From Actinophytocola sp. (GTDB taxonomy: Bacteria > Actinomycetota > Actinomycetes > Mycobacteriales > Pseudonocardiaceae), in contig NZ_JBJMIE010000042.1 in NCBI RefSeq assembly GCF_045807065.1, positions 2,724-66,723 on the forward strand: DNA of 64,000 bases, read 5' to 3'. Of this stretch, positions 3,071 to 59,875 are shown piece after piece (the first letter of the stretch is position 1; the number at the start of each line of letters is the position of its first letter). Made by a program: the position numbers and the translations under genes. The notes under the pieces are model-generated. The model made no database searches. It saw nothing but the letters and a program-made list of their open reading frames with translations, and was not told where the DNA came from.

Positions 3071-4618
3071 CTACGAGCCCACGGTCAGCTCGTGGTAGTT
3101 GATCACCCGGTTGACGTCGTGGTAGCCCTTGACCCCACCGGCGGTCGCGTTGAGGTCGATCTGTTCGACCAGCAGCAGGCTTGGTGGGTTGTCGTGCGCT
3201 GCCCTGGCCAGGTCAGCGAGCAGCGTTGCCCGCCGTCCGGTGTCGAATTCGGTGCTCGCCTTGGCCTGTAACGGCATTACCGCCTCGTCGCAGAAGAACG
3301 CCGGCGTCTTCGCGCAGGAGAACAGGGCGTACGGACGGGAGGCGTCCAGGATCGGTGCGGTATTCCAGGACAACCCGAACGCGGGCGTGTCCCAGGTGCC
3401 CTTGGTGTACTTGTCCAGCCAGGCCGCGAACTGCACCTGACGCAACGTCACCCGCACCCCGACTTTGGCCAGGTCGGCCGCCATCGCCTGGTAGATCTCC
3501 GCGTCGGCGGGGTAGGTGCCGACCACGACCTCGGCGGGCAGCGCGAAACCACTGCCTACGCCCGCCTCGGCCAACAGCCGTCTGGCCTTCGCCGGGTCGT
3601 AGGGATACGGTTTGACGTCCTCGGCGTAGCCGAAGGCACCGGGGGTGGCGCCCTGGCTCGCCGGCCGGCCAAGCCCGGCCATGACGTTGTCCACAATGGA
3701 GTTCTTGTCTACGGCGTAGTTGAGCGCCTGTCGCACTCGCCGGTCGCTCAGCGGTGTGCTGCCCCTGGTCGTGACGAACGCCAGGGACATCACCTGCGGG
3801 GCCGGGGTGACCTGGACTGTGGCGCCAGCCGCGGTGATCCGTGCCTGTTGGTCAGGGGACAGGCCGAGTACCAGGTCGAGCTGGCCGGACTGCAGAGCCT
3901 GCAGGCGGGCCGCCGGCTCACCAATTTCGGTGATCTCGAGTCGAGGCACCACGGGTCTACGCCAGGAGCCGTTGAAGCCGGTGAAGGTCACCTTTCCCGG
4001 ATTCCACGACTCGACCTGATAAGAACCGGAACCCACCGGACTGGCGGCGAACCCTCCCGGGCCCCGCTCGGCCCAGGCTTTCGGCGCGACGATGTACATC
4101 GTGGCAATCCGGTTCGGCAGGATCGGATCCGGCGCCGCTGTGGTGAACTCGACCTCGGTTGCGGAGACCGCCCGGCTCGCGCTCAGCGTGAGCAGCTCTT
4201 TCCCGACGACGGTGGCCCTGCCCGGGTCGGAGTGAAGATAGTCGAACGTGGCCACGACCGCGGCGGCGTCGAGCTTCTCGCCGTCGCTGAACCTCAGACC
4301 GGAACGCAGGGTGAACGTCCACGTCGTGCGGCTGGTCGACGCCCACTTCCGCGCCAAAGCAGGGGCCGGTTCGCCGTTCGCGTTCACCACGGTGAGCGCA
4401 TCGAACATCGGCGACCAGGTGTAGATGCTCGGAGAGCCCACTGCACTGAACGGATTTCCCTGACCCGGCGGCAAGGTCTGGACCCCGACACGCAGCACCC
4501 CGGCCGTCGCGGCGTCGCCACCCTCGCCGTCGGAACCGCAGCCGGACATCATCAGCATGCCGATCGACAACACGACGATGAATCGGCGACAGCCAGGACC
4601 TGTCGAGGAACACAGCAT
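3071..4618 (-). CDS. ABC transporter substrate-binding lipoprotein (family 5)
   Basis: Lipobox-like MMSGC; PALAxKW, FTLRSGLRFSDG, PVGSGSY, RVRQALNYAVD and YDPAKARRLLAEAG motifs. Start uncertain. Confidence 0.9.
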   Translation of the reverse strand: MLCSSTGPGCRRFIVVLSIGMLMMSGCGSDGEGGDAATAGVLRVGVQTLPPGQGNPFSAVGSPSIYTWSPMFDALTVVNANGEPAPALARKWASTSRTTWTFTLRSGLRFSDGEKLDAAAVVATFDYLHSDPGRATVVGKELLTLSASRAVSATEVEFTTAAPDPILPNRIATMYIVAPKAWAERGPGGFAASPVGSGSYQVESWNPGKVTFTGFNGSWRRPVVPRLEITEIGEPAARLQALQSGQLDLVLGLSPDQQARITAAGATVQVTPAPQVMSLAFVTTRGSTPLSDRRVRQALNYAVDKNSIVDNVMAGLGRPASQGATPGAFGYAEDVKPYPYDPAKARRLLAEAGVGSGFALPAEVVVGTYPADAEIYQAMAADLAKVGVRVTLRQVQFAAWLDKYTKGTWDTPAFGLSWNTAPILDASRPYALFSCAKTPAFFCDEAVMPLQAKASTEFDTGRRATLLADLARAAHDNPPSLLLVEQIDLNATAGGVKGYHDVNRVINYHELTVGS

Positions 4619-4684
4619 CGGTAACTCCCTCGTTCGCCCGACCCGTCGCCGCGAGAGAAACGCTAGCCAGTATTCATCATCAAC

Positions 4685-5539
4685 TCAACGAAAGGCCGAC
4701 GGCCGCAACTCGAGAATCGCACCGTCCGGGGTCACCAGCACGCGCGGCGCGCTTTTCGGCGCATCGACGACGACCACGGCGACTCCCGGCGGAAGGGCAC
4801 CGGACAGCACCGGACGCCGGACAGCCAGCGGCGGATACTGGTTGATCTCAACCAGGTTCCGTCCAGCCAGCTGAACCGAGCTGAGCCGGTGCACGGCGGA
4901 CGCGGGCAACCCGAATGCCTGGTTGAGCACACCGATCGCACCGAACCGGTCCGAACAGCGGCGCACCGAAAACGTTTCCTCCCACCAGGTCCGAGCCAGC
5001 TCCAGATCCTCGGCGGCATACACGACGCCGTAGACACCATCCACCGCACCAACACCAGGATCCGGCCGGCCCGGCAACTCGAACGGCGGCAGCTCGCCGC
5101 GAATCTCAGTCAGGTACAACACCTCGCCGGTCGGCCCTGCCACCTGGGCCGACCGCAGCACTGCTCCCGCCCTGCCGGTCAGCGGCGCCGGCGCGCGCAG
5201 CGTCGTGAACCCCGCGCCAAGGCCAGCGAACACCACATCGACGTCAGCCACCGACAACTCCAGCGCCGCCCAGCCAAAACTGCGCATCGGCAGGTAGCCA
5301 GGTGTGGCCGCGCCCTCCACCATCTGGATCACACCACCCACGCCGCTCGCCGAGGCAACCGTCACGTACGGCGCGCCCGCCACAGCCGGCGCAAGCCAGC
5401 GTGCCGCAGTCCGATCATCGATCACGCCGACGGCCACGACACCGAACCCGAGCCCGTCCCGGTAAGCAGTGACACTCCGCTCGAGATCGCCGGTGCTCAC
5501 CACAACCGAGCGAATCGGCCCCACCCTGGGAATTCTCAC
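4685..5539 (-). CDS. VOC/glyoxalase-superfamily protein (two-domain)
   Basis: SVVVSTGDLERSVTAYRDGLGF and VVYAAEDLELARTWWEETF resemble two VOC beta-alpha-beta starts; co-oriented upstream of the ABC genes. Confidence 0.6.
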   Translation of the reverse strand: MRIPRVGPIRSVVVSTGDLERSVTAYRDGLGFGVVAVGVIDDRTAARWLAPAVAGAPYVTVASASGVGGVIQMVEGAATPGYLPMRSFGWAALELSVADVDVVFAGLGAGFTTLRAPAPLTGRAGAVLRSAQVAGPTGEVLYLTEIRGELPPFELPGRPDPGVGAVDGVYGVVYAAEDLELARTWWEETFSVRRCSDRFGAIGVLNQAFGLPASAVHRLSSVQLAGRNLVEINQYPPLAVRRPVLSGALPPGVAVVVVDAPKSAPRVLVTPDGAILELRPSAFR

Positions 5540-43482: not shown

Positions 43483-46326
43483 TCATGGCTGTGGCGGCTT
43501 CTTGGGTCCGGGTAGTCGCGCATACTCGTCGAATGCGTCTGCCCTGACCTGGGTACCGTGCAGGTCCTGGCTGAGCCGCACGGCTTGCTCCGCGTAGTAG
43601 CGCGCCCGGTCCGGTTCACCGTGTAGCCGGTGAGCTCTGGCGAGCGTGGTGAGTGCCCATATCTCCCCGTAGCGATATGTGTGTCTACGGGCGAGGTCGA
43701 GCCCGCGGGTCATGATCGTGATCGCCTGCTCGTAGTTCCCTCGGTCGACATGAATCTTCGCCAGTATCTCGTGTGCGTCGCACTGCCGATAGTGATCGCC
43801 GGTTTTATTATACCAGGACAGCCCTTTCTCGACCATGGTGATGGCCTCGCCGGAATTGCCGAGTTGGTGGTTCGCCTTGCCGAGGTTGACCAGCGCGAAA
43901 GCCTGGCCGAGGGGCACGCCGATGTCCCGGGCGAGGTCCAGTTGTTGTTGAAGGTAGGCGATGGCCTGCTCCGGTTGCCGCTGGGCGAGATGGGTGTGGC
44001 CGAGGTTGCCCAGCGCACGCTGCTCACCGAACCGGTCGCGGATCTCCTGGCAGATGGCCAGTTCCTCGAGAAGGTGGGCACGTGCCTGGTCGAGCTGACC
44101 GATCTGGCTCAGATGCATGGCCAGGTTGCCGTGTGCGTGCGCCAGCGCGACAGAGTGCCCGAGGCGCTCGGCTGCTGCGACGACGCTGTCGAGGAAGCTG
44201 ATCGTGTCGGGTAGGTCGCTCACGCCGGAGTGGAGAAAGCGGTACCAGTGCAGAGCCAGGGCGAGCCCGACGCCGAGGCGGACCTCCTCGGCGGGACCCT
44301 GCCAAGCTTGTAGGACTACCGCGACCATGTTGTGGTGTTGTTCGTCGAGCCACTGCAGCGCTTCGTCGTGGTTGGCCAACGGTTTGGGCGGCGCGGTAAC
44401 CTCGGGTGCGGGGTGGTGCGCTCGATGTGGGTAGACCAGCGCATTGGCTCGACAGGTCGTGGCGATGTAGTAGCTCAGCACGCGAATTATCAGCATGTGT
44501 CGTTCCGCCGGCGCGAGGGTTCTGGTGCCGAGTTCGTGCGCGAAGAGCCTGGTGAGGTCGTGCATGTGCAACCGCCCGGGCTTGGGTTCCTCCATCAGGT
44601 GCGCGTCGAGCAGGCGCTCGGTGATCAGGTCAGCCTCGGCGGGCGTCGTGTCGAGCACTGCGGCGGCGAGGTCCGAGTCGGTGTCGGTGCTGGGTAGCAG
44701 TCCGAAGAGGCAGAGTGCTCGGGCTGCCTTCCGGTCGATGTGGTTGGCACTGTCGTGAAGGGCGGTGTGGCTGACAGCGAGGCTGCTGCGCAAGGCGATG
44801 TCGTCGGCGGCGAGCTCGGTGAGCCGGTGCCGCTCGTTGGCCAGCCGGTCGACCATGTCGTGCACGCGCCAGCTCGGTCGGGCGTTGAGCCGGGCAGCGG
44901 CTACGTGCAGCCCCAACGGCAGATGGTCGCACAGCTCCGCCAGCCGGTAGGTCGCTTCGAACTCCACCGGTCTAATGTCCGGAAGCAGGCTCGCGAGCAT
45001 CATACGGGCCTCGTCGGGAGTGAGCGGACCGAGGACCAGGTGAGTCGCGCCTTCGAGTGCCGCCAAACGGCTTCGGCTGGTGATCAGCACAGCGGTGTCC
45101 GGACCGCCGGGCAGCAGCGGTCGTACCTGACCGGTGCTGGCGGCGTTGTCCAGCATGATAAGCAGCCGCCGCCCGGCCACCACGGTACGCAGCCGTGCGG
45201 CCGCTTCTTCTACGCCAGACGGTATCTCCGTGTTGGCGACGCCCAGCGTCCGCAGCAGGTGGTGCACGGCCTCCACCGCGGACAGCGGCCGCATGCCCGG
45301 TGTCGCGCCACGCAGGTTGACGTGCAGCTGCCCATCCGGGAAACGTGGCATCACCAGATGTGCCGCACGCACGGCGAGCGCCGACTTACCCACTCCTGGC
45401 GCGCCGTGGATGACCACGACCGGTCCCGCCGCCGACGTGGGTTCCGTGGTGAGGAGGCCGGTGAGGGTGGCCACTTCCTGGTCCCGGCCGACAAACGTGT
45501 TCAGGTCACGCGGAAGTTGTCGATGTGTCCGAGTTCCGGTGGCGTGCCCTGCCGCGACACCGGTGTCGGGGGCCGGTGTGGAGATGATCAGCGTCGGGTC
45601 GGCGTTGAGAATTCGTTGGTGCAGTTGCTGCAACGGCTGGCCGGGATCGACGCCGAGCTGTTCTGCGAGCCGCAGTCGGATCTGTTGATAACACTCAAGG
45701 GCCTCAGCCTGCCGTCCACAACGGTACAGCACTGTCATGAGTTGGCTGGCGCACCTCTCGTCCAAGGGGTATGCCGATACTTGCGCCAACACCCGGGCGA
45801 GCAACTCCTTGTGGCGGCCAAGCCGCAGCTCGACGTCGGTCCGGTCAAGCTCGGCGGCCAGCCGTTCCTGGTTCAGCGCGAGCCGGGTGGCATTGATCCA
45901 CGGAGTGTCCAGTCCGCCGAAGGCCTCGCCTCGCCACAGGTTCAGTCCCTGCGCGAAGAGCTCGGCGGCGGCGTCATCAGCTCCAACCGAGCGAGCTTGG
46001 GCGAGTAGGCGTCGACTGACGAACAGATCCACCGACTCGGGCGCGGTCGTCACCACATAGCCGGCCAGTCGCCGTTCTATGCCAACATCTTCCGCACCCG
46101 CCAGCACCTGCCGAAGACGTGACACATAGCTGGCAAGAGAACGGTCGGCCCGCGCCGGCAACCGCTCCCCCCACACGCGCTCGGCGAGGACCCCGGTCGG
46201 TACCGCACGGCCAACATCGACCAGCAGAGCCACCAACACGGCCCGCTGACGGGCATGACCAGGGTCAACCTGCCGTCCGTCGACCCACGCCTCGACATCG
46301 CCCAGAACTCTGAATCTCGTCGCCAC
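43483..46326 (-). CDS. AfsR/SARP family regulator (wHTH-BTAD-NB-ARC-TPR)
   Basis: FRVLGDVEAW, QRAVLVALLV, LNLWRGEAF, YPLDER, FVGRDQE, Walker A GAPGVGKS, LIMLDNA, HLPLGL, MHDLTR, TPR tail. GTG 46326 is the likely start. Confidence 0.93.
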   Translation of the reverse strand: MATRFRVLGDVEAWVDGRQVDPGHARQRAVLVALLVDVGRAVPTGVLAERVWGERLPARADRSLASYVSRLRQVLAGAEDVGIERRLAGYVVTTAPESVDLFVSRRLLAQARSVGADDAAAELFAQGLNLWRGEAFGGLDTPWINATRLALNQERLAAELDRTDVELRLGRHKELLARVLAQVSAYPLDERCASQLMTVLYRCGRQAEALECYQQIRLRLAEQLGVDPGQPLQQLHQRILNADPTLIISTPAPDTGVAAGHATGTRTHRQLPRDLNTFVGRDQEVATLTGLLTTEPTSAAGPVVVIHGAPGVGKSALAVRAAHLVMPRFPDGQLHVNLRGATPGMRPLSAVEAVHHLLRTLGVANTEIPSGVEEAAARLRTVVAGRRLLIMLDNAASTGQVRPLLPGGPDTAVLITSRSRLAALEGATHLVLGPLTPDEARMMLASLLPDIRPVEFEATYRLAELCDHLPLGLHVAAARLNARPSWRVHDMVDRLANERHRLTELAADDIALRSSLAVSHTALHDSANHIDRKAARALCLFGLLPSTDTDSDLAAAVLDTTPAEADLITERLLDAHLMEEPKPGRLHMHDLTRLFAHELGTRTLAPAERHMLIIRVLSYYIATTCRANALVYPHRAHHPAPEVTAPPKPLANHDEALQWLDEQHHNMVAVVLQAWQGPAEEVRLGVGLALALHWYRFLHSGVSDLPDTISFLDSVVAAAERLGHSVALAHAHGNLAMHLSQIGQLDQARAHLLEELAICQEIRDRFGEQRALGNLGHTHLAQRQPEQAIAYLQQQLDLARDIGVPLGQAFALVNLGKANHQLGNSGEAITMVEKGLSWYNKTGDHYRQCDAHEILAKIHVDRGNYEQAITIMTRGLDLARRHTYRYGEIWALTTLARAHRLHGEPDRARYYAEQAVRLSQDLHGTQVRADAFDEYARLPGPKKPPQP

Positions 46327-46566
46327 AGCGCGTCCTCTGATAGACAGCACCCGGATAACCACGGGTATCCCAGTCATCAACTGTTCAACAATCTCACAAC
46401 AGTTTGCCGACATCGAGCGGGCAACATGGTGGAGCGCTGGTGCGGCACCGTTCAGCAGCGCGGAACCGGCCCGGTCCGAACCGCTCGGGTAGGTCGACGA
46501 CCGAGGACGAAACGACCATCACCTGGCAGGCATCGAAAGTATGCGGAGACGTACGTGCTGACACTG

Positions 46567-51540: not shown

Positions 51541-52245
51541 TCAGCCCCGGAGGATCGGTGGGTACAGCACGGTCGCCGAACCACGCCGGTAAAGCATTGC
51601 CGGGCGGCCGCCGTTCTTGATGCTCTGCTCGCCCGTGGGGTCGAGGAAGTTCTCGACGCTGGTCACCTTGCGGTGGAAGTTGCGCGGGTCCAACTGCTGC
51701 CCCCACACGATCTCGTAGACGTTCCGCAGCTCGGTGACGGTGAACACCGGTGGGCAGAATGCGGTGGCCAGGTTGGTGTATTCGAGCTTGCTCCGTGCCC
51801 GCTCGACGGCGTCGCCGACGATCTTCTTGTGGTCGAAAGCGAGCGGTCGTCTTGTTCTGAGGATCTTGTCGACGGGTTTCCATTCCGCCGCCTGTGCGTC
51901 ACCGCCTGCCGCCGGTAACGGCAGGTCAGGCACCAGCGCGAGATAGCACACCGTGACGACGCGGCGCCGTGGATCACGGTCAGGAGCGCCGTAGGTGCGC
52001 AGCTGTTCCAGGTGCAGGCGCTCCACCGCCAGCCCGGTCTCCTCTGCGAGCTCCCGCGCCGCCGCGGTGTCGATGTCCTCGTCCTCGGATGCCAGGAAGC
52101 CGCCGGGTAACGCCCACGTCCCGAGGAACGGCTCGATGCCACGACGTACGAGTAATATCTGCAGCTGTCCTGACTGGACGGTGAGTATTGCCAGGTCGAC
52201 TGCGACGGCCACCGTGGGGATCGTCCAGCCGTCTTCGGATGTCAT
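51541..52245 (-). CDS. nrtR: NrtR-family Nudix-related transcriptional regulator
   Basis: VAVDLAIL...WALPGGF...AAARELAEETG...LEQLRTYGAPDRDPR...LAFDH..I, then wHTH FTVTELRNVYE...LDPRNFHRKV...GGRPAMLYR. Confidence 0.9.
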   Translation of the reverse strand: MTSEDGWTIPTVAVAVDLAILTVQSGQLQILLVRRGIEPFLGTWALPGGFLASEDEDIDTAAARELAEETGLAVERLHLEQLRTYGAPDRDPRRRVVTVCYLALVPDLPLPAAGGDAQAAEWKPVDKILRTRRPLAFDHKKIVGDAVERARSKLEYTNLATAFCPPVFTVTELRNVYEIVWGQQLDPRNFHRKVTSVENFLDPTGEQSIKNGGRPAMLYRRGSATVLYPPILRG

Positions 52246-52259
52246 GCGTGCAGTCTAGG

Positions 52260-52314
52260 TTATCGTCAACGTGACGACAAGCAATGATCGACATTACCGT
52301 CATGTTGACGAGAA
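52260..52314. promoter_or_regulatory. Two 21-bp palindromes (TT-N2-CGTCA-N3-TGACG-N2-AA), putative NrtR operators
   Basis: TTATCGTCAACGTGACGACAA at 52260-52280 and TTACCGTCATGTTGACGAGAA at 52294-52314, in the 103-bp divergent intergenic region. Confidence 0.8.
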
Positions 52315-52348: not shown

Positions 52349-53254
52349 ATGGGGGACCGTAAAAATCGGAGCGAGCCAATGATCGTGATCCTCACCGCAC
52401 TGCAACGAGAATTCACAGCGGTTCGACGACACCTGACCGACGTGCGAACGCATCGGCACAACGCTGGCACACTGTTCGAAGTCGGGTCGCTCGCGGACCA
52501 CCCGGACCGGCAGGTCGGGCTGGCGGTCATCGGCGAGGGCAACGCGCCGGCGGCGACCATCACCGAGCGGGCGATCAACGAGTTCTGCCCGACTGCCGTG
52601 ATGTTCGTCGGGATCGCCGGAGCGCTGCACGGGTGGCTCCAGCTGGGTGACGTCGTGGTGGCGACGCGGGTTTACGGCTACCACGGCGGAAGCAGCCGAG
52701 ACGACGGGTTCAAGGCTCGGCCACGTGCCTGGGACAGCTCACACGAGCTCGAACAGGTGGCCCGGCATGTCAACCAGGATGATGTCCGGTGGTCGGCGAT
52801 GTCGGGCAAACCGACGGTCTATTTCTGCCCCATCGCCGCCGGCGAGGTACTTTTGGAGTCTTCGGCGTCACCCGTCGCGAAGCAGTTGCACGACCACTAC
52901 AACGACGCGGTGGCCGTCGAGATGGAAAGCGCCGGAGTCGCCCAGGCGAGCCAGCTGAACCTGTCGACGCTCTCCATCACGATCCGCGGCATCAGCGACT
53001 TCGCCAGCAGGACGAAGCGGTTCACCGACCGGCAGGGGATGCCGCAGGTCGCGGCCGACAACGCCGCCGCGTTCGCGGTGGCCGTCATCTCCGGAATCGT
53101 GGACACCGGAGAACGGTCCGACCGGGGTGGGGCGGACGAGAAGCGCTATCGCGTCAAGAACGAGGCCACGGGCAACGCGAACGTCGTCGCGCAGATCGGT
53201 GTGGTGCACGGCAGTGTCCAGTTCGGCTCGGACACGGGCAAGGGCGGATCGTGA
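52349..53254 (+). CDS. PNP_UDP_1 / MTA-SAH nucleosidase-family effector with C-terminal RHIM/BASS-like motif
   Basis: VILTALQREF, FVGIAG, GDVVV, IAAGEVL, AVEMESAGVA, IRGISDFA; tail VKNEATGNANVVAQIGVVHGSVQF. Confidence 0.88.
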   Translation: MGDRKNRSEPMIVILTALQREFTAVRRHLTDVRTHRHNAGTLFEVGSLADHPDRQVGLAVIGEGNAPAATITERAINEFCPTAVMFVGIAGALHGWLQLGDVVVATRVYGYHGGSSRDDGFKARPRAWDSSHELEQVARHVNQDDVRWSAMSGKPTVYFCPIAAGEVLLESSASPVAKQLHDHYNDAVAVEMESAGVAQASQLNLSTLSITIRGISDFASRTKRFTDRQGMPQVAADNAAAFAVAVISGIVDTGERSDRGGADEKRYRVKNEATGNANVVAQIGVVHGSVQFGSDTGKGGS

Positions 53255-55464
53255 TGCCTGACCCCAAGCCGGCCGGCGGTTCACAGGCGACCAACACCGC
53301 GACCGGAAACGCGACGGTTGATGCCCAGATCGGTTACGTTGAAGGTGACGCAGTCTTCCACAAGCACGAAACCATCTACCAAGTCGCCGCCGACGACTCC
53401 CCCGAGAAGAAGTTCCAAGTGGCACGCAACCTCATCGACGGCGGAGTACCGAGGCCGGCGGAGGATCTCATCAGGCAGGCGCTCAACGTGGGGTATGCCT
53501 CCACGGAGGTCGCGTACTACTACGCCATCTCCGTCCTGAGTGAACGTTCGTTGAACCAACTGGGAGCCAACGAGCTGGACAAGCTCGAACACGCCATACG
53601 TGTGGCCGAGCGCGAGCCGCACGATGAATGGTGGGCGGCCATCGTGGTCATCGGCGAGCTGGTGCAGTGCGCAGTCGATCCCGACAGCGCACCCAATCCG
53701 CGACACGCCGCGCTGCGGGTCGTACTCGACGACTTCCGGGCACTCGTTCAGCAACGGCAGGCCGAGATCACGCGGCACCTCGACATGATCTTCAGCGGAG
53801 CGGTGCAGGAGGAGCTCGACCGGCTGAACTCCGCGACCGTCGCCGCGGAACGTGCGAAGGGCAACCGAGCAGACCGCGCGTGGAAGTACTTCCACCCCGA
53901 TCCGACGTCACCGCGACGCGGCACGCCGCCCCCGTTGCGGGACGGAGAGCCACGGTCGTTCGCATGGGCCGTGACAGCGTTCGGCGTCGTCGTGTTCGGC
54001 CTGTTCGCCACACTGGACGTCAGGACCTCTGGAATGTCCTGGCGAAGCCTGTGGCCCCGAATGCTGTTCGTGGTTGGCGCGCTGGTCGTCGTATGGTCCG
54101 GGTCGGAAGCGTTGACCTCCTACATCCGCAGGCGGATGCGGGAAGCCGAGCACGGCAGGAACCCGGCGGAGTTCGACGAGCACGAGGAGCTCGGCATAGC
54201 GCTCAACGCCACGCAGAAGTTCGCGTCCGCGACGTGGAAACGGGTGCGCTACTACTTCGCCGTTCGCGGGCCGATCAGGAACACGGGCGAATGGGCGATG
54301 AAGACGAAGGGTATCCAGGCCGCGCTGCACTGGCGGCTGGTACGGCTGTACAGCGCTGGACGAGTGGAGGTGACCACTCTCAACTGGCTGATCCGGTGGT
54401 ACGCCAAGCAGACCGCCGAGCAGTGGCGAGCCGGGAGCCTGCCCGATTTTCGCCGGACGCTCCGCCCGAGTCCGTCCACGGTCCTGTCGGTGGGAGTTGG
54501 TGCGGTCGTCGCGGCCAGTGGCGCCGTACTGCAGTTCGTGAGCTCCGTTGCGTTGGGCTTTCTGCCCACGCTGCTCTCTGTCCCGCAGGTGCTGACGGCC
54601 TGTGCTGTCGGCGGGGGTGTCATGTACCTGCTGGGCGATCACCGTGCGAGAGCTCGGGAGCAGGAGGTGCTCGACGAGCTCTTCGAAGGTGAGAAGCGCG
54701 AGTTCCACCGGTGGGAGCAGCGCCTGCGGGATCGGCCGACGGACTCCGAGATGGCACACTGGCTGGAGTACGACAAGTCGCACCTGAAGACCCTGGCGAT
54801 GCGCCGCTGCGAGCTGAACAGCCGGGAGATCATCGCTCATGTCGTGCTGACGGCCGGTAAACCACGTGCCATGCGCGCCAGGGTCGTCAACGGTCCACCC
54901 CGTTTCTCCAGATACGTCGTGCTGGTCTTCCTCCTCACCGAGCACGGCGTCCGGGAGGTCGACGTCGACCTGAACTTCCTGACGGGTGCGATCTACGACG
55001 AACGGCGCACGTCGTTCCGATACGACGCGCTCGCGTCCGCTCGGGTGCTCGAGAAGGGCTTCCAGTCGGCCGAAGGCCAGCAGCACGTCGTACTCCTCGG
55101 GCGGGACGTGCACCTGACCGACAAGTCGGCGCTCGTGATCAGCCGGACCTTCGAGCTGGCCCTGGTCAATGACCAGACGATCGAAGTCGTCGTGGACAAC
55201 TACGAAGGGCTGATCGACGACAGCACCGCCGAGGACAAGTCCGCTCTGGACACAATGGCGCTCGATTCGTCCGGTGTCGCGATCGCGCTGCACATTCTCG
55301 AAGCGGTCGCCGCTGAGGGCCGGGAGTGGATCACACGGGAGCAGGACCGCCGGACCCGGCGGTGGCGCGAGTGGGAACGTGGTCGGCGTCGCATTGTCGC
55401 GCTCATCGGCAGACCGTGGCCGCTGACCCTCGCGTCGGGGAGAGGCCCGGCAGAGGCGTCCTAG
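53254..55464 (+). CDS. Membrane protein with N-terminal RHIM/BASS-like motif, helical region, about four TM helices and a soluble C-terminal domain
   Basis: ATG overlaps the upstream TGA. N-terminal ATNTATGNATVDAQIGYVEGDAVF; TPR-like KFQVARNLIDGG...YYYAISVL; hydrophobic segments; no P-loop seen. Confidence 0.78.
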   Translation: MPDPKPAGGSQATNTATGNATVDAQIGYVEGDAVFHKHETIYQVAADDSPEKKFQVARNLIDGGVPRPAEDLIRQALNVGYASTEVAYYYAISVLSERSLNQLGANELDKLEHAIRVAEREPHDEWWAAIVVIGELVQCAVDPDSAPNPRHAALRVVLDDFRALVQQRQAEITRHLDMIFSGAVQEELDRLNSATVAAERAKGNRADRAWKYFHPDPTSPRRGTPPPLRDGEPRSFAWAVTAFGVVVFGLFATLDVRTSGMSWRSLWPRMLFVVGALVVVWSGSEALTSYIRRRMREAEHGRNPAEFDEHEELGIALNATQKFASATWKRVRYYFAVRGPIRNTGEWAMKTKGIQAALHWRLVRLYSAGRVEVTTLNWLIRWYAKQTAEQWRAGSLPDFRRTLRPSPSTVLSVGVGAVVAASGAVLQFVSSVALGFLPTLLSVPQVLTACAVGGGVMYLLGDHRARAREQEVLDELFEGEKREFHRWEQRLRDRPTDSEMAHWLEYDKSHLKTLAMRRCELNSREIIAHVVLTAGKPRAMRARVVNGPPRFSRYVVLVFLLTEHGVREVDVDLNFLTGAIYDERRTSFRYDALASARVLEKGFQSAEGQQHVVLLGRDVHLTDKSALVISRTFELALVNDQTIEVVVDNYEGLIDDSTAEDKSALDTMALDSSGVAIALHILEAVAAEGREWITREQDRRTRRWREWERGRRRIVALIGRPWPLTLASGRGPAEAS

Positions 55465-55616: not shown

Positions 55617-55952
55617 GTGATTGAGCCGGTTCTCATGTCGATCGCCGCCGCACTCGCCGGGAAGTCCGTGACATCGCTCTACGAGTTGGTGAAGCGCAGG
55701 TTCACCGGTCGCGGGGAGGCCGCGGCGGCGCTCGAGAAGGCGTCGGACGCGGCTCCCGGCTCGCCCGAGGTGGCGGCCTTGGCCGCACACCTCGCTGCCG
55801 CGGAAGTGGAGAACCCGGCCTTTGGCCTCGAGATGCGACACATCTGGCGGCAGGCAACCGCCGACCGCCGCGGTGTGGTCAACGTGATCACGGGAAACGT
55901 GTCCGGCAAGGTAGTTCAGGCGGGGGACATCGAGGGCGGGATCAGGTTCTAG
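55617..55952 (+). CDS. Small Bell/HeLo-like helical protein with C-terminal RHIM/BASS-like motif
   Basis: Hydrophobic N-terminal helix MIEPVLMSIAAALAGKSVTSLYELVKRRF, helical bundle, tail VVNVITGNVSGKVVQAGDIEGGIRF*; GAAGGG RBS before GTG. Confidence 0.78.
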   Translation: MIEPVLMSIAAALAGKSVTSLYELVKRRFTGRGEAAAALEKASDAAPGSPEVAALAAHLAAAEVENPAFGLEMRHIWRQATADRRGVVNVITGNVSGKVVQAGDIEGGIRF

Positions 55953-56159: not shown

Positions 56160-56543
56160 CGCATGGCGGCGGGCTCTACGCCTACATCCAGCCCGATGGC
56201 AGCTGGATGATCAACAACACCGGGTTCCTCGTCGGCGCGGGCGGTGTCGTCGCGATCGACTCGTGCTTGACGGAACGGCGGACCCGCGCCTTCCTCGACA
56301 GGGTCCGGACCGTCAGCGGTGGTTCCGTCCACACGCTGCTCAACACCCACAGCCATCCCGACCACACCGCCGGGAACGGCTGGTTCCCCGGTGCCACGAT
56401 CATCGCCCCAGGAACGCACCCGCGCCGACCTGCTCGCGGCGAGAGGCGCACCGCCACTGCGCGACATCTTCGAACCGATCGACGAGGGCGAACTGCCACC
56501 CGCCCCACCGTTCCTGACCTACACCGACGGCGTCACGCTGTAA
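56160..56543 (+). pseudogene. Truncated, frameshifted MBL-fold metallo-hydrolase (cyclase-like)
   Basis: YAYIQPDGSWMINNTGF...LLNTHSHPDHTAGN (HxHxDH), frameshift near 56408, stop after GVTL. Confidence 0.78.
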
Positions 56544-57180: not shown

Positions 57181-57262
57181 GGCCGCCGCCCGGCCGAACG
57201 GCGGGAGAATGGCAACTGTCAGCACTTTTTGGTTGCTGTGTACGGGTTTTAGGATTGATGTC

Positions 57263-59875
57263 GTGGGGGACAGATGGCCCCTGGTCGGCCGGTTGTCGGA
57301 GTTACAGGCTATCGACGCGGTCGTTCGCCAGGCCGGCGGTGGGCGTGGTGTGGTGCTGGCAGGCGCCGCGGGGGTGGGGAAGACGCGGCTCGCCCGCGCG
57401 GCGTTGGCCAATGCACGGCGCGATGGGGTGCTCACCCGCTGGGTGGCGGGCTCGGAGTCGGCGCGCACGGTGCCGTTGGGGGCGTTCGCCTCGGTGTTGC
57501 CGTCCGTGGGGTCTGATCCGTTCCGCGCCCTGGGGCAGGCGAGCGGCGCGCTGCTCGCCGGTGCCGGTCAGCAGGGGGCGCTCGTGGTGGTGGACGACGC
57601 GCACCTGTTGGACGAGCTGTCGGCGACGCTGGTGCACCAGCTGGCGGTCGGCGCGGCGGCGACGGTCGTGCTGACCGTGCGTACGGGGGAGCCGGCGCCG
57701 GATGCGGTGACGGCGGTGTGGAAGGACGCCTACCTGGACCGGCTCGAGGTCGCGCCGCTGACCCGGGCCGAGACCGGGATGTTCCTGGAGGCCGTGTTGG
57801 GCGGGCCGGTCGAGATGGTCGCCGCGACGCGGATGTGGCGGCTGTCCCGAGGCAACGCGTTGTACCTGCGGGAACTCGTGGTGGGCGAGCGGGACGCCGG
57901 GCGGCTTACCGACCTCGGTGGCGTGTGGCGCTGGTCCGGTCAGCCCGCGCTGTCACCGAAGCTCGTGGAACTCGTGGAGTCCCGCATGGGCACCGTGCTC
58001 GACCCGGCTCGGGAAGTGGTTGACCTGCTCGCCTTTGCCGGCCCACTCGGCGTGGACGTCCTTGGCCGCCTGGTGGACAACTCCGCGCTGGAGTCGGCGG
58101 AGACGGCCGGCCTGGTGGAGGTGGAGGCCGACGGCCAGCGCTTGACGACGGGGCTCGCGCACCCGCTGTACGGGGAGGTTCGGCGGGCCGCGACCGGGGT
58201 GTTGCGGGCCCGCGGTCTGCGCGGCCGGATCGCCACGGCCCTGCTGGACACCGGCGCCCGCCGTGCCGACGACGAGCTGCGCTGTGCGGCGCTGATGCTC
58301 GACTCCGACCTCACCCTCGACCCGGATCTCCTCTCACGTGCGGCGGGCCGGTCGGCGCAGCTGCTGGACCTGCCGCTCGCGGTGCGGCTCGCACTGGCCG
58401 CGGTGGCGGCCGGCGCCGGGTTCGCCGCGCGGGCGATCGTCGCGCAGTCGCTGACCATGCAGGGGTGGGGTGCCGAGGCGGAGGCCGAGCTGCGGGTCCT
58501 CGCGGAGTTGGCTGATACCGATGTCGAGCGGGCGTGGGTGGCCGCGATGCGGGCCGGCAACATGTTCCTGACGCTGAACGACCCGGCTACCGGTGACCGG
58601 CTGCTGACCGAGGCGCTCACCGCGATCCCGAACGTCGGCGCCAGGGAGATCCTGTGGGCGCTGCGCTCGGTGTTCGACAGTCACCTGGCCCGACCCGCCG
58701 ACGCACGGCGGGCCGCCACCGTCGTGCTCGACGCGCCGTGCCCACAGCCCATCTCGGAGTTCGCGGCCCGCTGGGGGTTGACCGGCGCGCTCGGCCTCAC
58801 CGGCCACGCCGACGAGGTCGAGGCGGTGGCATCCCGCGCCTACCTGCTGGCGAACACCTTCGACACCGCGGTGTTGCGGTTCAACCTGGCCGAGTTCGAA
58901 CTCCTGGCCTACCGGCTCGCCGGGTATCTCGCGCAGGCCGACGCGGTCGCGGCCCGTTGCCGCGACGAGGCCGCCGAGATGCCCGGTGTTCCGCTGCTGT
59001 TCGCCGCCGCGCTGACTGGGCACGCCGAGCTCGCCAGGGGCCACCTGCGGGACGCCGTGCGCTGGCTGCGGGAGGCCCTGGCCGGGTTCACCGTCGTCGA
59101 TCCGGCCGGACGGGTGTTCGACTGCCTGCTCTGGCTGACCCAGGCGCTGGCGACGGCCGGTGACACCGACGCCGCGCGGCGGGCGTTGGCCGACATGGAG
59201 GCCAACCGGCATCACGGGTTCGTGTACCGGGAGCCCGAGGTGTTGCTGGCCAGGGCCACCGTGGCCGCGGCGCAGGGCGCGCTGAGCAAGGCCGTCGCCC
59301 TGGCCAGGGAGGCGGCCGGGACCGCGAGGGCGGCGGGACTCGCGGCCTACGAGGTGCAGGCGCTGCAGACCGCGGTGCGCTTCGGCGATCACGGCACGGC
59401 CGCGCGGCTGGCCGAGCTGGCCGTTCTCGTCGACGGCCCCCGGGCGCGTACCGCCGCCGCGCACGCGGCCGCCCTCGCCGAGCGCGACGGGCTCGCGCTG
59501 CACGCGGTGTCGCTGGAGTGGGAGCGCATGGGTGACCTGATCGCTGCCGCCGACGCCGCTGCCCAGGCCGCTGCCGCGCACGACCGCTGGAATCACGCCG
59601 CCCGACCGAGGACCGACGCCGGGCGGGCGCACCGGCTGGCCGAGGCGTGCCAGGGTGCCAGGACACCCGCGATCCGCGCCGCCGCACGCCCTCTGCCGAT
59701 CACCGCGCGAGAGCGGGAGATCGTCGGCCTCGCCGGTGGTGGTCTGTCCAACCGGGACATCGCGGAACGGCTCGGGGTCTCCGTGCGCACGGTGGAGGGC
59801 CACCTCTACCGTGCCGCTGCCAAGCTCGGCGTCACCCGCCGGGCCGACTTCGCCGAGCTGCTGGGCAACGTCTGA
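57263..59875 (+). CDS. LuxR-family AAA ATPase regulator (MalT/LAL-like)
   Basis: WPLVGR, Walker A GAAGVGKT, VVDDAHLLD, GNALYLREL, C-terminal ITARERE...SNRDIAERLGVSVRTVEGHLYR. Start uncertain. Confidence 0.92.
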   Translation: MGDRWPLVGRLSELQAIDAVVRQAGGGRGVVLAGAAGVGKTRLARAALANARRDGVLTRWVAGSESARTVPLGAFASVLPSVGSDPFRALGQASGALLAGAGQQGALVVVDDAHLLDELSATLVHQLAVGAAATVVLTVRTGEPAPDAVTAVWKDAYLDRLEVAPLTRAETGMFLEAVLGGPVEMVAATRMWRLSRGNALYLRELVVGERDAGRLTDLGGVWRWSGQPALSPKLVELVESRMGTVLDPAREVVDLLAFAGPLGVDVLGRLVDNSALESAETAGLVEVEADGQRLTTGLAHPLYGEVRRAATGVLRARGLRGRIATALLDTGARRADDELRCAALMLDSDLTLDPDLLSRAAGRSAQLLDLPLAVRLALAAVAAGAGFAARAIVAQSLTMQGWGAEAEAELRVLAELADTDVERAWVAAMRAGNMFLTLNDPATGDRLLTEALTAIPNVGAREILWALRSVFDSHLARPADARRAATVVLDAPCPQPISEFAARWGLTGALGLTGHADEVEAVASRAYLLANTFDTAVLRFNLAEFELLAYRLAGYLAQADAVAARCRDEAAEMPGVPLLFAAALTGHAELARGHLRDAVRWLREALAGFTVVDPAGRVFDCLLWLTQALATAGDTDAARRALADMEANRHHGFVYREPEVLLARATVAAAQGALSKAVALAREAAGTARAAGLAAYEVQALQTAVRFGDHGTAARLAELAVLVDGPRARTAAAHAAALAERDGLALHAVSLEWERMGDLIAAADAAAQAAAAHDRWNHAARPRTDAGRAHRLAEACQGARTPAIRAAARPLPITAREREIVGLAGGGLSNRDIAERLGVSVRTVEGHLYRAAAKLGVTRRADFAELLGNV

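Follow-up and report, generated by a model that had tools for sequence, protein, structure and literature searches.

A nucleosidase gene and the membrane-protein gene that follows it

The DNA analysed here (the window) is a stretch of 64,000 nucleotides from an Actinophytocola sp. genome (contig NZ_JBJMIE010000042.1, positions 2,724 to 66,723), and the gene in question is an open frame at 52349–53254 (+) of the window, listed with 301 amino acids, whose product (P0001) is a nucleosidase. Directly downstream on the same strand lies the gene for a 736-amino-acid membrane protein (P0003, 53254–55464 (+)), referred to below as the partner, and upstream a gene for an NrtR-like regulator is read in the opposite direction. 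The sequence comparisons described below support the conclusion that P0001 carries, in place of the NTPase fused to its nearest relatives, a C-terminal motif resembling a bacterial amyloid signalling sequence (BASS), which is matched to, and co-varies with, a motif in the partner as putative receptor. Translation of P0001 probably starts at the ATG at 52379 (M11), giving 291 amino acids, because GGAG lies 7 nucleotides upstream of this codon and the closest homologues are 291 amino acids long (301 minus 10); this shift leaves the finding unchanged, and residue numbers are given for the 301-residue listing.

P0001 matched the Pfam family PNP_UDP_1 (PF01048) with an E value of 6.6e-28 and 98.1 bits, against a gathering cut-off of 25.1, over model positions 2–232 of 233. 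The catalytic domain (residues 12–247, 52382–53089 (+)) was delimited by this match and by alignment with E. coli MtnN, taken from NC_000913.3, and with DtcC and Cap17. GIAG (residues 88–91, 52610–52621), AVEMES (residues 189–194, 52913–52930) and IRGISD (residues 212–217, 52982–52999), which the original prediction had read as intact motifs of a 5′-methylthioadenosine/S-adenosylhomocysteine (MTA/SAH) nucleosidase, are all present, and the catalytic residues of MtnN are kept in the alignment (E12 as E21, E172/M173/E174 as E191/M192/E193, R193 as R213 and D197 as D217). These residues have no discriminating value for MtnN, because immune PNP enzymes share them. D217 aligns with D353 of DtcC, from the Detocs system, and mutating this residue or the corresponding D472 of Cap17 destroys defence (Rousset et al. 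2023, 10.1101/2023.01.24.525353). The Cap17 sequence used comprised the first ∼160 residues of the PNP domain and ends before D472, and this counterpart of D217 is given by the description in the same paper, not by alignment (10.1101/2023.01.24.525353). At position S76 of MtnN the alignment has Ile in P0001, likewise in Cap17 and DtcC, and the hydrophobic loop of MtnN that forms the 5′-alkylthio pocket (E. coli residues ∼100–113) is replaced by YGYHGGSSRDDGFKARPR, which is basic and conserved across the clade of P0001. The basic segment, FKARPR (residues 121–126), is located at this pocket loop for the 5′-substituent; the pattern of the loop in the clade is Y..GG.S.DDGF.ARPR, which resembles KFAPRP of Cap17, and a loop of this kind would suit a phosphorylated substrate.

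Behind the catalytic domain the original prediction had placed a short charged linker and then a motif, and this is the order found. The linker, DTGERSDRGGADEKRYRVK (19 residues, 252–270, 53102–53158 (+)), is followed by the BASS-like motif NEATGNANVVAQIGVVHGSVQF (22 residues, 271–292, 53159–53224 (+)); among homologues the linker varies in sequence and length and the motif after it is conserved. The protein closes with a conserved end of the form G-x-x-G-[EK]-G-G-S before the stop codon (53225–53254 (+)), here GSDTGKGGS, and the ...GEGGS end is kept in close homologues. The codons of this end hold an AAGGG/GAGGG stretch that resembles, and may act as, the Shine–Dalgarno sequence of the next gene. 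The TGA of P0001 overlaps the ATG of the partner (TGATG, 53252–53256), which implies translational coupling of the two genes.

P0001 belongs to the short form of its enzyme family (∼290 amino acids), in which the motif is terminal. In the commoner, long form (365–390 amino acids), ∼90 residues that make up a helical domain come after the motif (...LKRLRGLVADVAELAAK...). In a separate case (locus L071 of genome G046, 4561–4989 (+)), a protein of 129–143 amino acids upstream of a partner homologue consists of the motif and the ∼90-residue helical domain with no PNP domain, so that this helical domain could be an independent module.

The partner starts with MPDPKPAGGSQATNTATGNATVDAQIGYVEGDAVFHK, and its N-terminal motif, NTATGNATVDAQIGYVEGDAVF (residues 14–35, 53293–53358 (+)), is identical to the tail of P0001 (271–292) at 14 of 22 positions; in the DNA, the two motif stretches are 75% alike over 36 nucleotides. 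The Smith–Waterman score of the P0001 tail against the partner was 63, compared with 23.8 ± 4.7 for shuffled tails, and was reached by 1 of 20,000 shuffles. Across the partner family, the N-terminal motif was recognized by regular expression in 111 of 147 representatives.

The PNP gene abuts the partner gene in 32 related loci, from which motif pairs were read in frames running from stop to stop, with the stop codon of the PNP gene as anchor. For 26 dereplicated loci, the segment after the PNP domain was aligned to residues 1–60 of each of the partners. The mean score with the own partner was 57.8, compared with 37.4 ± 2.4 for permuted partners, and none of 100,000 permutations reached it; the own partner ranked first in 9 of the 26 loci and among the top three in 17. 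Lineage-specific versions of the motif change in both proteins together, NTVNGKSNNSMQIGIVNGG going with NTVEGDDNHVTQVGVVNGG in one lineage and GSTVGIQARDVTNSTV with GSSVGIQAEQVHNSTV in a second, and paired changes could be followed even between close relatives, with DN in both proteins of locus L042 and DH in both proteins of L043. Three loci (L044, L050 and L052, from genomes G036, G162 and G139) have two tandem partner paralogues after a single PNP gene, and the N termini of both paralogues resemble the single PNP tail.

The core of the motif is enriched in Asn (3.7-fold), Gln (3.4-fold), Gly (1.35-fold) and Val (1.3-fold) and depleted in Leu (0.14-fold) and Lys (0.77-fold), and the same composition bias has been reported for bacterial amyloid signalling sequences (10.1101/2020.01.06.895854). 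The likeness to BASS is one of placement, length, composition and linker.

The partner consists of the N-terminal motif, a TPR-like helical region (residues 50–212), two transmembrane (TM) hairpins, a further helical region and a beta-rich C-terminal domain. Both hairpins (residues 236–254 and 270–288, 53959–54117 (+); residues 410–428 and 434–452, 54481–54609 (+)) were located by Kyte–Doolittle scan and by the AlphaFold2 model, in which those of the first appear as long helices, and the beta-rich domain (residues 526–648, 54829–55197 (+)) by the secondary structure of the model. The model is of moderate confidence (predicted local distance difference test (pLDDT) 70.8, predicted template modelling score 0.58), with a pLDDT of ∼30 for residues 1–42 and no confident structure for the motif. 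With K/R-rich cytoplasmic flanks at both hairpins, the motif and the TPR-like, middle helical and beta-rich domains should all be cytoplasmic, i.e. all large domains are predicted to face the cytoplasm. Sequence searches of Pfam, NCBIfam, PADLOC and PDB chains returned no match for the partner, and a Foldseek search of its model against the PDB gave none below an E value of 0.01, the only hits being weak, TPR-like ones in the helical part near the N terminus. No Walker A motif or P-loop was found in it; 2 of 164 family members show one, by chance. With four TM segments and no NOD NTPase or repeats, the partner is not a NOD-like receptor (NLR).

As a side observation, four members of the partner family (P0178, P0182 and P0221, ∼1100 amino acids, and P0167, 897 amino acids) have a C-terminal alpha/beta-hydrolase or histidine-phosphatase fusion.

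Relatives of the enzyme and distribution of the module

P0001 scored far below the cut-offs of the MtnN equivalog models (NF004079, 78.7 bits against 169; TIGR01704, 44.2 against 73.8) and of the futalosine hydrolase MqnB model (TIGR03664, 63.9 against 124.7), and PDB MTA/SAH nucleosidases matched it at E values of ∼1e-10 only. The PADLOC model "Effector PN-superfamily" matched it at 3.6e-22. Two other PF01048 genes are found in the 10.4-Mb genome, one PunA-like and beside a phosphomutase, the other Udp-like. Of 81 genomes sampled from the class, only 1 had a bona fide MtnN above the cut-off, and an MtnN gene is therefore not expected in this genome.

Some PNP homologues in the same bacterial family lie in very long frames, which Pfam resolved into PNP + nSTAND1 + WD40, PNP + NB-ARC + TPR, PNP + NACHT and PNP + NACHT + LRR. 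A maximum-likelihood tree was built from the PNP domains of 38 sequences, with the sequences of DtcC and the partial Cap17 as given in supplementary data by Rousset et al. In it the motif-bearing enzymes form one group (support 91/94), whose sister is the PNP domains fused to STAND/NLR NTPases (93/97). The claim that P0001 has a tail instead of an NTPase fusion is borne out by this placement, the nearest relatives being NTPase-fused, together with the match of 14 of 22 positions between its tail and the N terminus of the next gene's product. A further branch (97/89) splits the motif-bearing and NLR-fused enzymes, DtcC and the partial Cap17 from MtnN of E. coli and two actinobacterial MtnN. The phylogeny against MtnN and Cap17 that had been proposed thus separates P0001 from MtnN in the best tree, but an approximately unbiased (AU) test of the tree grouping the clade with MtnN gave p 0.129, with DtcC and Cap17 on long branches and Cap17 partial; the placement with Cap17 and DtcC is therefore that of the best tree and not statistically secure. 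Taken together, the results support P0001 as an immune-type nucleosidase and not a housekeeping MtnN, in a clade with NLR-fused PNP domains that probably also holds Cap17 and DtcC, and the public annotation of the gene family as "MTA/SAH nucleosidase" is very probably wrong.

Some further PNP proteins were noted during this comparison. In Pseudonocardiaceae, proteins of 470–630 amino acids (L081, 1282–3144 (−); L082, 433–2316 (+); L083, 515–1930 (+); and L087) consist of PNP, a short G/N-rich segment and one TM helix, followed in L081 and L082 by extracytoplasmic RCC1 repeats, as judged by Pfam; their PNP domains nest within the motif-bearing clade, with the nucleosidase fused directly to a membrane sensor. 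Three others (L084, 278–1339; L085, 369–1247; L086, 296–1192) have an N/G-rich stretch resembling a beta motif at the N terminus (e.g. VNNTSNTKFTFNGGNTNIREVNSGIVINQ), not the C terminus, and form a well-supported clade of their own beside the Cap17/DtcC branch. In a phage collection, one distant PNP only was found, a "phosphorylase family protein" of Leptospira phage LE1 (KF114878.1, 18946–19623), 32% identical to P0001 over 73% of its length.

The NrtR-like regulator gene (51541–52245 (−)), divergent from that of P0001, encodes a Nudix domain and an NrtR winged-helix domain (Pfam NUDIX, 8.4e-21; NrtR_WHD, 1e-15). In the intergenic region between the two genes a repeat search found two 21-bp palindromes, TTATCGTCAACGTGACGACAA (52260–52280) and TTACCGTCATGTTGACGAGAA (52294–52314), which are probable candidate operators of the regulator. 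NrtR regulons are classically concerned with nicotinamide adenine dinucleotide (NAD) metabolism. The likeness to the NrtR family lies in the Nudix and winged-helix domains and in the two palindromes in the promoter region; in contrast to the family's usual targets, the NAD biosynthesis genes, the regulator here adjoins an operon for a nucleosidase and a membrane protein, which it is predicted to control.

The module of NrtR-like Nudix regulator, PNP enzyme and membrane partner is conserved. A word-indexed search yielded 20 partner homologues, 13 of which share their contig with a PNP homologue, and an exhaustive profile search yielded 589 cluster representatives of the partner. In the 32 fetched loci the PNP gene is directly upstream of the partner gene, usually with overlapping stop and start codons, and an NrtR-like Nudix regulator lies alongside; in most related loci the regulator homologue adjoins the PNP gene, divergent or co-directional. 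When whole genomes of Pseudonocardiaceae were searched, 83 of 301 had the partner, spread over 31 of 60 genera; in the window's genus it was present in 6 of 14 genomes. PNP homologues (E ≤ 1e-10) occurred in 101 of the 301 and 9 of the 14. PNP was also present in 77 of the 83 partner-positive genomes (Fisher p 1.8e-42, a value that ignores phylogeny). In a class-wide sample the partner occurred in 15 of 401 genomes, and all 14 loci besides the window's own have the order NrtR-PNP-partner. The genes flanking the module differ between genomes, as in Micromonospora and Nonomuraea records, where the same three genes have unrelated flanks. The whole module is also carried by pLBRS, a mobilizable 191-kb linear plasmid of Streptomyces sp. 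M54 (locus L123, NZ_CP059899.1, 30006–33889), where its products are annotated as NUDIX, "MTA/SAH nucleosidase" (396 amino acids) and hypothetical (656 amino acids). The distribution is thus both patchy and plasmid-borne.

Proposed amyloid signalling and competing explanations

The leading explanation, which in our judgement is about as probable as not, is that P0001 acts as the enzyme effector in an amyloid-signalling type of protein pair, with the four-TM protein as its receptor. Amyloid formation, activation by oligomerization, the substrate, the trigger and a role in defence are points that we infer by analogy with known systems. In the proposed sequence of events, the NrtR-type repressor would hold the operon low until released by an ADP-ribose-type nucleotide signal, and a membrane-linked or cytoplasmic cue would cause the membrane protein to cluster, whereby its N-terminal motifs could form a beta-arch or cross-beta nucleus. 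This nucleus would recruit or template the tail of the nucleosidase and bring its catalytic domains together; active sites of the PNP family lie at subunit interfaces. The assembled enzyme may then cleave adenine off a phosphorylated adenine nucleotide, most likely ATP or dATP, as Cap17 and DtcC do, and so stop growth or kill the cell, in abortive infection or regulated cell death. The complete proposal, a widespread actinomycete cell-death or antiphage system made up of an NTPase-free, four-TM amyloid-nucleating receptor, a tail-templated ATP-cleaving nucleosidase and an ADP-ribose-sensing NrtR gate, is more tentative and somewhat less probable than the effector pair as such.

Fungal effectors of the PNP_UDP family carry a C-terminal motif, PUASM (HRAM-like, NLR12), and lie next to genes for NACHT/WD40 NLRs, and amyloid and prion behaviour has been shown for them experimentally (Wojciechowski et al. 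2022, PMC9815663). Both there and here, a free-standing PNP_UDP_1 enzyme has a single C-terminal motif of ∼22 residues that is repeated at the N terminus of the adjacent gene's product, and "all-in-one" PNP-NLR fusions occur in the same taxa. For this fungal arrangement of PNP_UDP, amyloid motif and NLR, the work of Daskalov et al. of 2012 is reportedly to be named alongside. The motifs differ (N-x-A-x-G-N-A-x-V-x-x-Q-I-G-V-x-x-G here, F-x-G-x-G-x-Q-x-x-G-x-G-x-F in fungi), and, unlike the fungal pairs, the pair described here is bacterial, with a putative four-TM receptor that has neither NOD nor repeats, coupled genes and an NrtR-type regulator.

In bacteria, BASS1–10 have been described from pairs of Bell and NLR proteins (Dyrka et al. 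2020, 10.1101/2020.01.06.895854). BASS11 belongs to Bab/Agp, an antiphage system of E. coli whose receptor, Agp, is not an NLR and has an amyloid motif at its N terminus (Ibarlosa et al. 2024, 10.1101/2024.11.07.622273). These systems share with the present pair the logic of two genes, the motif length, the composition bias and the linker, and they also occur in filamentous actinomycetes; Bab/Agp shows, in addition, that an NLR receptor is not obligatory. The effector domains other than Bell listed for BASS are alpha/beta-hydrolase, TIR2, CHAT, as well as guanylate cyclase (10.1101/2020.01.06.895854) and the domains associated with BASS11 are TIR, CHAT, EAD7, NACHT, along with NB-ARC (10.1101/2024.11.07.622273), with no PNP_UDP in either list. 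Nor do these preprints of 2020 and 2024 describe a membrane-embedded receptor, whereas the partner here has four TM segments. In our literature search, PNP_UDP with an amyloid motif was found described for fungi only, and no paper joining NrtR, nucleosidase and phage was found.

Cap17, of type III CBASS, and DtcC, of Detocs, are ATP nucleosidases (Rousset et al. 2023, 10.1101/2023.01.24.525353), and NLR-like proteins from Amycolatopsis, Kibdelosporangium and Streptomyces are among the members of the Cap17 clade (10.1101/2023.01.24.525353). P0001 shares with both the PNP fold, the catalytic Asp, the Ile at MtnN S76, the basic loop and the grouping in the best tree. It differs in its putative activation. 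Those enzymes are switched on through a domain that senses cyclic nucleotides (TPALS/SAVED context) or when a receiver domain accepts a phosphoryl group by phosphotransfer, and P0001 would be switched on through a short shared motif. The nearest relatives of its catalytic domain, the "all-in-one" PNP-STAND proteins of Pseudonocardiaceae (36–45% identity), have the sensor NTPase fused to the enzyme, whereas here a free enzyme is linked by a motif to an unrelated membrane protein.

Several observations weigh against amyloid signalling. In most members of the enzyme family outside Pseudonocardiaceae the motif is internal, with the ∼90-residue helical domain behind it, whereas amyloid signalling motifs classically sit at a terminus; it is also present as a single copy. 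The overlap of stop and start codons implies that the two proteins are co-expressed near-stoichiometrically, which is as compatible with a stable complex as with a templating cascade. The partner has no recognizable sensor or oligomerization domain (no PDB fold match for a model with a pLDDT of 70.8), NrtR regulators normally govern NAD metabolism, and the AU test leaves the grouping with the immune nucleosidases insecure. PADLOC found no known defence system nearby in the window, with a generic TPR match only, and no argument from a defence island can therefore be made. Chief among the competing explanations is stable docking without amyloid, in which the motif would mediate heterotypic beta-strand pairing and so tether one enzyme molecule to each membrane protein (1:1), on its cytoplasmic face. 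The partner would then be an anchor, an antitoxin-like inhibitor or an allosteric regulator whose release or conformational change controls the enzyme, and a role in defence would still be possible. Docking accommodates the TGATG overlap and tight operon, through co-translation at similar levels, the internal motif of the commonest enzyme form, the single motif copy and the absence of a confident AlphaFold2 structure for the motif; the co-variation shows that the segments must fit, not how. Against it, composition, length, flexible linker and placement are together the signature of validated amyloid signalling motifs, the tandem partner paralogues facing one tail are easier to reconcile with many receptors converging on a single effector than with a fixed 1:1 complex, and the homologous fungal arrangement, PNP_UDP with PUASM, acts as an amyloid that forms prions. 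On these grounds we regard stable docking as rather unlikely, though it is the strongest of the competing explanations.

A metabolic or regulatory role under NrtR control is weaker. P0001 would here be a nucleotide nucleosidase at the membrane, acting for example on AMP, nicotinamide mononucleotide or ADP-ribose, in NAD/adenylate homeostasis or in the development of filamentous actinomycetes. An NrtR-type regulator with two operator-like palindromes as constant neighbour would suit such a role, given the classical link of these regulons to NAD, as would the conservation of the three-gene unit across several actinomycete families, the lack of a PADLOC match for the partner or of a defence island in the window, and the fact that the PNP_UDP superfamily includes AMP nucleosidase. 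It is made improbable by the patchiness of the module even within the genus (partner in 6 of 14), its variable flanks and plasmid copy, by the enzyme's nearest relatives being N-terminal effector domains of STAND/NLR proteins, by a motif architecture that is that of cell-death signalling pairs, and by the fusion of alpha/beta-hydrolase, another typical effector domain, to some partner homologues. That P0001 is instead a housekeeping MtnN or MqnB, with a low-complexity C-terminal extension that resembles its neighbour by chance, is close to refuted. Homologues are publicly annotated as "5′-methylthioadenosine/S-adenosylhomocysteine nucleosidase", P0001 has the same catalytic residues as MtnN, the search of this 90%-complete genome turned up no further gene of MtnN type, and the AU test gave p 0.129 for a grouping with MtnN. 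Yet the scores lie far under every equivalog cut-off, the class as a rule lacks MtnN, two thirds of the Pseudonocardiaceae genomes do not have the gene of P0001, the hydrophobic 5′-alkylthio pocket loop has become a basic one, and the match between tail and neighbour goes far beyond chance and co-varies across loci.

If the complete proposal is true, this would be a prokaryotic enzyme under functional-amyloid control, for which no experimental precedent was found in the literature consulted, with the first membrane-embedded receptor of amyloid signalling, and the pair would correspond directly, in bacteria, to the PNP_UDP/PUASM/NLR pairs of fungi. The signalling logic and the effector fold are already known; the type of receptor, the combination of effector and motif in bacteria and the regulatory layer would be new. 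Experimental work on bacterial amyloid signalling has so far dealt with pore-forming Bell/Bab effectors, with a few other domains recognized by sequence and receptors that are nearly always of the NLR type. The locus and its several hundred relatives would add a nucleotide-destroying enzymatic effector and link the ATP depletion of Cap17 and Detocs with prion-like signal transmission, and a membrane-protein receptor would widen the nucleators of amyloid signalling beyond STAND NTPases. A tractable bacterial two-gene system would also be at hand for the question of how amyloid templating can switch on an enzyme, which also arises for the fungal effectors PNP_UDP and SesB.

Other genes near the locus

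Downstream of the partner lies the gene for a 111-amino-acid protein (P0002, 55617–55952 (+)) with a layout like that of Bell and Bab. Its N terminus, IEPVLMSIAAALAGKS, forms a hydrophobic helix, and the AlphaFold2 model has five helices over residues 4–84 (pLDDT 82–91) and a disordered tail of 27 residues (85–111), containing NVITGNVSGKVVQAGDIEGGIRF (55881–55949). With Bab (109 amino acids) it shares the hydrophobic N-terminal helix, the small helical bundle and the C-terminal tail. Sequence searches of Pfam, NCBIfam, PADLOC and PDB gave no match for P0002, and Foldseek no PDB match with an E value below 4, in a library that may lack the Bab structure. The layout fits, and P0002 is at most a candidate homologue of the Bell/Bab/HeLo fold. 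Its tail is weakly similar to the two motifs described above (Smith–Waterman 44 compared with 24 ± 5, and 33 compared with 21 ± 5), and in ∼70 homologues, which occur in unrelated neighbourhoods with no matching neighbour, it is nearly invariant. P0002 accompanies the pair in the closest relatives of the locus only, where no other matching partner is nearby either. Because of the weak similarity and the invariance in unrelated neighbourhoods it was not counted as a secure member of the module, to which it is possibly an add-on.

A tail of the same type as that of P0002 was seen elsewhere in the same genome, on contig C242 (reverse strand, ∼968–1757 of the reverse complement), in a protein with a TIR-like start (VFVSYAHESDEHKAR) and the end GRVVNQITGTVTGNVVQAETIQGDLHF; the genome therefore probably has a second effector with an amyloid motif.

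The part of the window downstream of P0002 (56000–57200) looks decayed, with short overlapping open reading frames without matches and a truncated fragment of metallo-beta-lactamase fold at 56207–56440, which matched Pfam Lactamase_B over 74 residues only. The region is flanked by two regulator genes without the motif, one encoding a SARP/BTAD + NB-ARC-like + TPR protein (43483–46413 (−)) and the other a LuxR-family protein with AAA_16 and GerE domains (57209–59875 (+)).

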